DNA from: Eledone cirrhosa
Lineage: Eukaryota
Length of the DNA stretch: 64,000 nucleotides
Direction of reading: 5' to 3'
NCBI GenBank assembly: GCA_964016885.1
Contig: CAXHJY010001629.1
Span: 1-64,000, forward strand
The notes under the pieces: model-generated
Told to the model about the DNA's origin: nothing
Seen by the model: the letters and a program-made list of their open reading frames with translations, nothing else
Databases searched by the model: none
Shown: piece after piece, positions 8,676 through 9,069 of the stretch
Layout of the letters: every line of letters starts with the position of its first letter
How positions within the stretch are numbered: position 1 is the stretch's first letter
Program-made: the position numbers and the translations under genes

Positions 8676-8801
8676 GTAGGAGGTGAGTTTTATTGTAGTA
8701 CAATAAAGCAATGCAGATATCGGATAAGAAGCACTCTACAGTTTGTAGGACTGGAGTATACATAATATATAAGATCAAAAGATGGTTAAAGGAGTTCCAT
8801 G

Positions 8802-8872
8802 TATTTTATTATGCGCATTTCAAAAACAAACATCATCATGCAATAATATTTGTGTTTTCATCAGATAAAACA
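8802..8872 (-). ncRNA. Type I hammerhead ribozyme, mirror copy in left arm of palindrome
   Basis: Exact reverse complement of 8951-9021: TCATCAG at 8858-8864, TTTC at 8818-8821, ATGCGCAT at 8811-8818. Confidence 0.8.
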
Positions 8873-8950
8873 GGACATGATATGAAGGCTAAAAAAACAC
8901 TTAACTGCACTATCCACACGCGTTTTTTTAGCCTTCATATCATGTCCTCC

Positions 8951-9021
8951 TGTTTTATCTGATGAAAACACAAATATTATTGCATGATGATGTTTGTTTT
9001 TGAAATGCGCATAATAAAATA
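8951..9021 (+). ncRNA. Type I hammerhead ribozyme (canonical core)
   Basis: Stem I TGTTTTAT/ATAAAATA; CTGATGA at 8959-8965; 16-bp stem II at 8966-9001 (1 mismatch, 3 G-U, GCAT loop); GAAA at 9002-9005; palindromic stem III ATGCGCAT; UH = TA, predicted cleavage after 9013. Confidence 0.8.
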
Positions 9022-9069
9022 CATGGAACTCCTTTAACCATCTTTTGATCTTATATAATATATATACTC

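Follow-up and report, generated by a model that had tools for sequence, protein, structure and literature searches.

A palindrome with two hammerhead motifs in Eledone cirrhosa is likely a dead-end insertion of a Penelope-like element

Towards the left end of the window, the 64,000-nucleotide stretch of Eledone cirrhosa DNA analysed here, lies a palindrome whose parts are listed in Table 1. Its arms of 145 nt (left) and 148 nt (right) enclose 23 nt and are identical at 143 positions, which reproduces the geometry given by the sequence-only reading, an earlier account made from the letters alone. One 3-nt indel, immediately upstream of stem I of the hammerhead motif described below, and two substitutions in the AT-rich outer end set the arms apart. 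The left arm lacks one 3-nt unit that is present in the right arm and in the majority of the repeat family to which both belong. The length of the central segment stands as first described, but it is mostly further element sequence rather than a loop. Nor does the unit end at 8754, as proposed before, since it reaches farther left through a tail. The right arm stops where most family copies enter (TA)n (9066), and its last 2–3 bases are common to the neighbouring repeat. A search for TSDs between the flanks returned only two direct matches of 5–6 nt, neither of them at a boundary; TSDs are often not discernible in microsatellites (PMC8557442).

Table 1. Features of the palindrome and its flanks, in window positions.
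Feature	Positions	Strand	Basis
(TA)n microsatellite, likely left insertion target	8616–8673	.	Sequence; 81 nt from the outer end of the left arm
Probable PLE-type tail beyond the pLTR end, left copy only	8674–8753	-	Loose ends behind 9069 compared with the left flank
Left arm, probably the shorter 5'-truncated pLTR copy; may reach 8902	8754–8898	-	Arm alignment and family variant tables
Type I hammerhead motif, mirror copy; predicted cut after 8810	8802–8872	-	Motif search and fold
Spacer	8899–8921	+	X4 piece; X6 loose ends before 8903 and 8924
Right arm, probably the longer 5'-truncated pLTR copy, without tail	8922–9069	+	Arm alignment; family ends
Type I hammerhead motif; predicted cut after 9013	8951–9021	+	Motif search and fold
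Separate dispersed repeat adjoining the right arm, outside the palindrome family	9068–9213	.	Three window copies, own depth peak, contigs starting at 9068

The window as a whole is AT-rich and dense in microsatellites. AT satellites several kilobases long occupy positions 1–8440 and 42800–46200, the first with a period of 17–19 nt; their strand skew is strictly G-only (GC skew ~1.0). A single-exon SERTA-domain ORF is found at 28898–29815, and the palindrome could be intronic if the 5' exon of this ORF lies far upstream. An RVT_1 fragment is present at 53826–54890. As the sequence-only reading had noted, no RT ORF is attached to the palindrome, and we detected no RT or endonuclease ORF linked to the arm family in the window.

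Both arms contain a hammerhead motif, and the two motifs read outward from the centre of the palindrome. On the plus strand, stem I (8951–8958 with 9014–9021) encloses the core (8959–8965), stem II with its loop (8966–9001), GAAA (9002–9005), the self-complementary stem III AUGCGCAU (9005–9012) and an AUA triplet. The mirror copy has CUGAUGA at 8864 on the minus strand and likewise GAAA, the palindromic stem III and AUA. The core, GAAA and AUA are thus present in both arms, which confirms the earlier claim of a complete type I motif in each arm, one per strand. We ran a hammerhead descriptor on the 64-kb window and on 200 block-shuffled windows. It matched twice in the real window, both times in the palindrome, whereas shuffled windows gave 0.025 relaxed matches per window and a palindromic stem III in 0.005 per window (1/200). 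The motif is not due to chance, and the two matches are one motif duplicated rather than two independent motifs. The predicted cuts were placed according to standard hammerhead numbering. The layout of the motif upholds the cut after 9013, which had been proposed before, as a prediction.

The core CUGANGA, GAAA and UH occur in both arms, and three helices surround the core with stem I open (8 + 15 + 2 pairs in the monomer and an 8-bp stem III in the dimer), which is the type I arrangement. Stem I has eight pairs, one of them G-U. Stem II, described earlier as 16 bp, does cover 16 positions but consists of 15 pairs (three U-G) and one C-U mismatch; with its 4-nt loop it separates the core halves by 36 nt. 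The canonical metazoan type I form has a helix I of 6 bp, a helix II of 4 bp, a loop1–loop2 contact and a conserved G10.1-C11.1 pair (PMC4209133). As stem II here has 16 positions, four times the canonical helix, and closes with A-U instead of G10.1-C11.1, the motif is not canonical in the published sense, although it had been called so.

Compared with the hammerheads of metazoan Penelope-like elements (PLEs), namely the min-HHR and small-palindromic-helix-III forms, the palindrome motif shares the type I topology, the conserved core and a short palindromic stem III that implies dimer cleavage (PMC4209133). Dimer cleavage was described by Lunse et al. (cited through the review PMC6765202). The palindrome motif differs from the PLE hammerheads in the A-U pair, the 8-bp stem I, the lack of an unpaired base between A9 and stem II, and in stem II itself, which at 15 pairs is about twice the published PLE length and outside the 6–8 bp given in the main text of PMC4209133. 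A literature search for PLE hammerheads with such a long stem II found nothing specific, and supplementary alignments may contain them. The Infernal comparison with Rfam that had been suggested as a check did not recover the motif: no family reached its gathering score in the window, and no hammerhead family was among the 55 matches at E<=10 in 8500–10000. The miRNA families that did match merely reflect the long hairpin. The 36-nt gap between the core halves falls within the range of 35–50 nt labelled "HHR_half_core" for Naiads in PMC8557442, and the supplement of that paper includes an Octopus Naiad with a (TA)n preference and an "HHR_half_core". We looked for a Naiad link by comparing exact strings only, where line breaks could hide a match, and found none: four of five short arm and tail motifs had no occurrence in the supplement, and the 8-mer palindrome occurred three times in unrelated contexts.

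To place the arm in a family, we used sequencing runs of other organisms. Parts of 8680–9210 are present in 20 of 24 listed runs from 15 studies, and two runs contain half of its words. No RNA run is among those listed with the stretch, which is uninformative as to transcription. Four of the 24 runs were compared over 8895–9212 at 80% likeness, yielding 4380 pieces from X1 (arm and neighbouring repeat together), 49 from X6, three from X4 and none from X22, of which ~1% was read. The compared runs share at most 0.50 of words with the stretch and are relatives rather than the source genome, so the behaviour of the family is known from relatives. Contigs from three related organisms show the arm to be a dispersed repeat. 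Summed depth in X1 rose from 4,170 (8895–8905) through 33,583, 105,057 (8917–8927) and 904,431 (8950–8960) to 2,315,685 (9027–9037), and fell to 4,284 (9071–9081). This is a rise of ~500-fold from the loop to the 3' end, in a measure of contig depth that does not equal copy number and whose first bin sits at the edge of the stretch. The depth in X6 has the same shape (38, 1,463, 0). A gradient this steep within the stretch agrees with progressive 5' truncation. Between different organisms the arm hardly varies, with two differences in 128 nt in X4 and 0–1 in 60–68 nt in X6, which means either that these are close relatives or that the family spread recently.

The family has recurring 3' ends, quoted here from the loose ends listed, beyond which 136 further ones exist. 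In 74 X1 contigs the repeat runs into (TA)n behind 9066. In 40 X1 contigs the sequence behind 9069 matches the reverse complement of the left flank (8753–8724) at 29 of 30 letters, the length seen per loose end, and shorter matches to the same left-flank sequence occur in X4 and X6. This means that the left arm bears the family's own extension and the right arm does not. The first 30 nt of the tail are therefore family sequence, and the remaining 50 nt up to (TA)n would be tail as well. In 41 contigs the repeat ends behind 9046, a third kind of end, which sets off a subfamily. On the inner side, one X4 piece spans 8903–9031 with two other letters and a 1-nt gap. As this piece covers the centre, the spacer from 8903 onwards continues the right copy in the 5' direction, and 8903–8921 is its single-copy 5' part. 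Read on the minus strand, 8899–8902 match a family variant seen before 8924 in two X6 contigs; alternatively, one of these bases arose by CpG decay and two are filler. This places the head-to-head junction at ~8902/8903.

An assembly or library fold-back chimera might be suspected, because the stretch is not bridged by any listed contig and 8 kb of AT satellite lies next to the locus. We find this hardly credible: the arms differ by an indel and two substitutions, the flanks are not mirror images of each other, and what flanks the left arm is the tail that belongs to the family, as three other organisms show. Among the pieces from X1, X4 and X6, none spans the stretch and no strand-change joint is listed, the sole joint being a 37-nt skip in the neighbouring repeat. 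As assembled contigs tend to break at palindromes, this absence of other inverted copies is no test.

The same depth data bear on whether the palindrome moves as a whole, as a MITE-like or retrozyme-like non-autonomous element. Long near-perfect inverted arms, the lack of an ORF, TA-rich ends and the wide occurrence of parts of the stretch among the listed runs would suit such an element. However, depth over the loop is only ~0.2–1.5% of the arm peak and 9 of 4380 X1 pieces cross either end of the stretch, which means that in X1 the palindrome is not amplified as a unit. Its ends are asymmetric, with a tail on one side, so that neither the amplified unit nor the symmetric termini and common centre of a MITE or foldback element are found. 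A mobile palindrome is therefore improbable. The retrozyme-like unit that had been considered for this locus fails on the same central depth, and on arrangement too. Retrozymes are tandem direct repeats (PMC7229834; bioRxiv 10.64898/2026.07.22.740005), whereas the window holds only the inverted pair and no tandem direct arm copies. The palindrome does resemble the non-LTR retrozymes of these two sources in being short, non-coding and AT-rich, and in having a type I hammerhead and a relation to PLE pLTRs. Retrozymes yield circular RNA between two same-strand ribozymes, and as each strand of the palindrome carries one, no unit can be released from it.

We then considered how the RNA may fold, in equilibrium calculations that do not describe kinetics. 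In an isolated arm, stem II formed with a probability of 0.99 and stem I with 0.58–0.66. Two isolated arms were predicted to pair through stem III with swapped stems I, giving a double hammerhead; the best dimer reached -40.9 kcal/mol and the strict active form -34.1, compared with -14.4 for each monomer (2 x -14.4 for two). These predicted energies favour the dimer-type hammerhead proposed by the sequence-only reading. A single right copy that includes the extra 5' bases from 8901–8903 misfolds in the calculation (stem II probability 0.09). RNA read through the whole palindrome is predicted to behave differently. For the duplex the ensemble energy comes to -219 kcal/mol, constraining the ensemble to the ribozyme fold costs +97.8 kcal/mol relative to this, and at 14 of 14 prefix lengths 81–98% of right-arm bases were paired with the left arm. 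Kinetics should not restore the ribozyme fold either, given that the pairing strand has already been made and is 23 nt away.

These calculations speak against the strand-symmetric switch that had been suggested, whose transcript would be divided between self-cleavage and long dsRNA; we take it here as a selected one. For such a switch, both motifs are intact, dsRNA is a likely by-product if the locus is read through, and none of the six family variants listed in the arm in the relatives' contigs falls in the core, stem I or stem III. However, intact motifs are expected in a young copy, and the variant pattern discriminates poorly. Three listed variants at paired stem-II positions keep the pair, all of them one-sided with no two-sided change. 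In a loose end shared by seven contigs, five stem-II changes, compared by eye, all keep pairing with the partner strand of the window; as pairing survives 13 of 15 transitions in the 5' strand of stem II, five of five has P=0.49. We therefore rejected stem-II covariation as proof of selection. Beyond the penalty of +97.8 kcal/mol, the predicted probability of stem II drops to ~1e-22 once both arms are present, the duplex would form before the core is complete, and stem III needs a second sense copy, whereas read-through RNA has just one. In the one PLE tested, that of anole, hammerhead cleavage needs protein and is dispensable for insertion (PMC11167929). No partition is predicted, and a selected switch is thus very improbable. 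If transcribed, the locus would likely yield long dsRNA, as for any inverted repeat. The motif is predicted to work, if at all, as a stem-III dimer in the RNA of the parent element and not at the palindrome locus.

Taken together, we consider the palindrome likely, with a probability of roughly 85%, to be a single dead-end PLE insertion, in which two 5'-truncated, hammerhead-bearing ends stand head-to-head in an AT-rich site and in whose read-through RNA a predicted 145-bp duplex would prevent both ribozymes from folding. The link to PLE pLTRs had been drawn before from the hammerhead; it is now supported by the 5' truncation gradient, the head-to-head copies, the one-sided tail and the (TA)n target. 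The arm is a terminal repeat with a type I hammerhead motif and a short palindromic stem III, it belongs to a dispersed family with frequent 5' truncation in the relatives X1 and X6, an inverted 5'-truncated copy adjoins it head-to-head, a tail is present at one end only (the 29/30 match to the left flank), and the target is an AT-rich microsatellite, (TA)n at 8616–8673, as it is for the 74 family contigs that end in (TA)n. This is the published plan of PLE insertions, which are strongly truncated at the 5' end, where an inverted truncated copy stands next to the pLTR, have a tail of 30–40 bp on one side and favour microsatellites, a bias by which TSDs are hidden (PMC8557442, PMC8969392). In rotifer PLEs the direct pLTR exceeds the inverted one in length, and the copies most often stand head-to-head (PMC3846280). 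Dual hammerheads ~100–700 bp apart on opposite strands were reported by Cervera and De la Pena (2014) as "probably related to truncated PLEs" (PMC4209133); they include dual motifs in Schistosoma mansoni, which have the opposite-strand placement in common with the palindrome.

The closest likeness is to endonuclease-positive PLE units (PMC3846280; PMC8557442, fig. 2; PMC8969392), which share head-to-head copies of unequal 5' length, a one-ended tail, a 5'-truncation gradient, an AT-rich or (TA)n target without a clear TSD, and a type I hammerhead in the repeat. In contrast to these, the palindrome unit holds no ORF sequence at all, and its tail, if it reaches (TA)n, is 80 nt and thus twice the usual 30–40. 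The assignment is to PLEs in general, without a clade (Penelope/Poseidon, Neptune, Nematis or Hydra). Pattern scans of metagenome and viral contigs gave one and two loci, respectively, with only unrelated bacterial or phage matches. The first (L001) lies within a bacterial transporter-like ORF, and the other two (L002 and L003) are viral-contig matches almost identical to each other; none of the three could be aligned to the window, and we rejected all of them as chance.

The window contains further structures of this kind. After simple repeats were dropped, nine local inverted pairs were left. We compared the palindrome, the pairs at 48.5 kb, 41 kb, 9.8 kb and 62–63 kb and the neighbouring hairpin, inspected the pair at 58.4 kb by eye, and left out two near 52.5 kb and one at 15.0 kb. 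At 48525–48890 a second stub has the same plan: (TA)n, a 55-nt one-sided extension, inverted arms, a 121-nt spacer and (TA)n. Its palindrome (48578–48885) has arms of 94 and 93 nt with 90 identical positions, and its spacer contains one minimal type I hammerhead motif on the minus strand, with the core at 48759, a stem II of 6 bp and a stem I of 4 bp. An ORF remnant at 62599–63498, within the region 62162–63700, has a 361-bp inverted copy directly upstream (358 identical, 99%). Its nearest Atlas clusters (0.96) have HTH_animal in 55% and GIY-YIG in 27% of members, while the remnant itself has no Pfam match at E<=0.1. The region resembles the endonuclease end of a PLE and has an Asn/Ser-rich insert; no sequence in common between the remnant and the palindrome arm was detected.

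Three other pairs are more degenerate. At 41016–41146 a diverging palindrome with arms of 60 and 54 nt has CUGAUGA in its spacer on the minus strand and GAAAC and GUC on its right arm, hammerhead-like core words without a folding stem II. At 9726–9922, beside a (TATG)n run, an inverted 57-nt pair (84%) encloses an 83-nt spacer with a degenerate core-like word, again without a folding stem II. The inverted pair at 58342–58482 lies in an RT-derived region and has CUGAUGA at 58440 followed by a 10-bp hairpin, with no intact GAAA. The repeat next to our palindrome (9068–9245) consists of a ~75-nt segment and a GC-rich hairpin (9144–9218; 29-nt arms, 24 identical) and ends in (TA)n; the segment recurs without the hairpin at 16049–16135, 41320–41394 and 42672–42750. 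This repeat may be another tail-plus-palindrome stub. As the stubs in the window differ in motif content, how many hammerheads a palindrome holds appears to be set by the point of truncation.

How might such a stub have arisen? In vitro, the anole PLE cuts and extends both target strands with a preference for AT-rich sites, and its reverse transcription starts at two adjacent internal sites, the interval between which is the tail (PMC11167929). By analogy, a PLE RT/GIY-YIG protein encoded elsewhere would have cut the (TA)-rich target and reverse-transcribed only the last 170–230 nt of its RNA. Less certainly, both target strands may have primed a cDNA. The left copy may have started at the distal site, with the tail, and the right copy at the proximal site, without it; the right copy would extend 19 nt further at its 5' end and end where 74 family contigs end. 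The two cDNAs may then have met and joined at the junction. That there are two ribozymes would simply reflect truncation upstream of the motif in both copies. Twin priming in L1 elements is a parallel to such two-strand priming. A literature search that joined Penelope, twin priming and inverted copies found none, its matches being on other topics.

Alternatively, a single molecule may have given rise to the mirror arm of the same PLE stub by folding back as a cDNA hairpin or by self-priming on an antisense template, the tail being trimmed from one side on integration. This is a substantial competing possibility, if one we hold less probable than not. It would account for arms identical at 143 of 145 positions, self-priming on an antisense template is the published explanation of head-to-head units (PMC3846280), and the tail has been ascribed to endonuclease resolution (PMC8557442). 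In the 48.5-kb stub, moreover, the extension and the spacer hammerhead are on the same copy, as fold-back predicts. However, in the palindrome it is the left copy that bears the tail but the right copy that includes the single-copy spacer, a target-primed tailless cDNA that folded back could not add a tail, and the first bases of the left copy match the family variant of the two X6 contigs and not the right copy. The location of the tail and the extra 5' sequence on opposite copies, which a single target-primed fold-back cannot give, suggests two priming events, and for this reason we prefer them.

A bolder extension of two-strand priming can be drawn, which we regard as speculative and unlikely. 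The stub could be a fossil of the PLE integration complex, in which two template RNAs were held together by the self-complementary stem III of an overlooked hammerhead with a long stem II and each was copied from one target strand. On this view, twin priming would use the ribozyme motif as a handle by which the RNAs dimerise, and the long-spacer hammerheads missed by descriptors would be real ribozymes of (TA)n-targeting PLEs. This would explain why one copy has a tail, why the other has extra 5' bases and why the arms have different family variants.

The architecture of the palindrome is already in print, and as it stands the stub is likely an everyday by-product of PLEs. It serves as a warning that a pair of hammerheads in a palindrome does not require a selected function. 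The arm family also carries a long-stem-II hammerhead motif that the Rfam models miss. Abundant stubs of this kind record how the inverted pLTR is made, a step listed as unexplained in PMC8557442, and the placement of tail and spacer in stubs across the genome could tell fold-back from two priming events.
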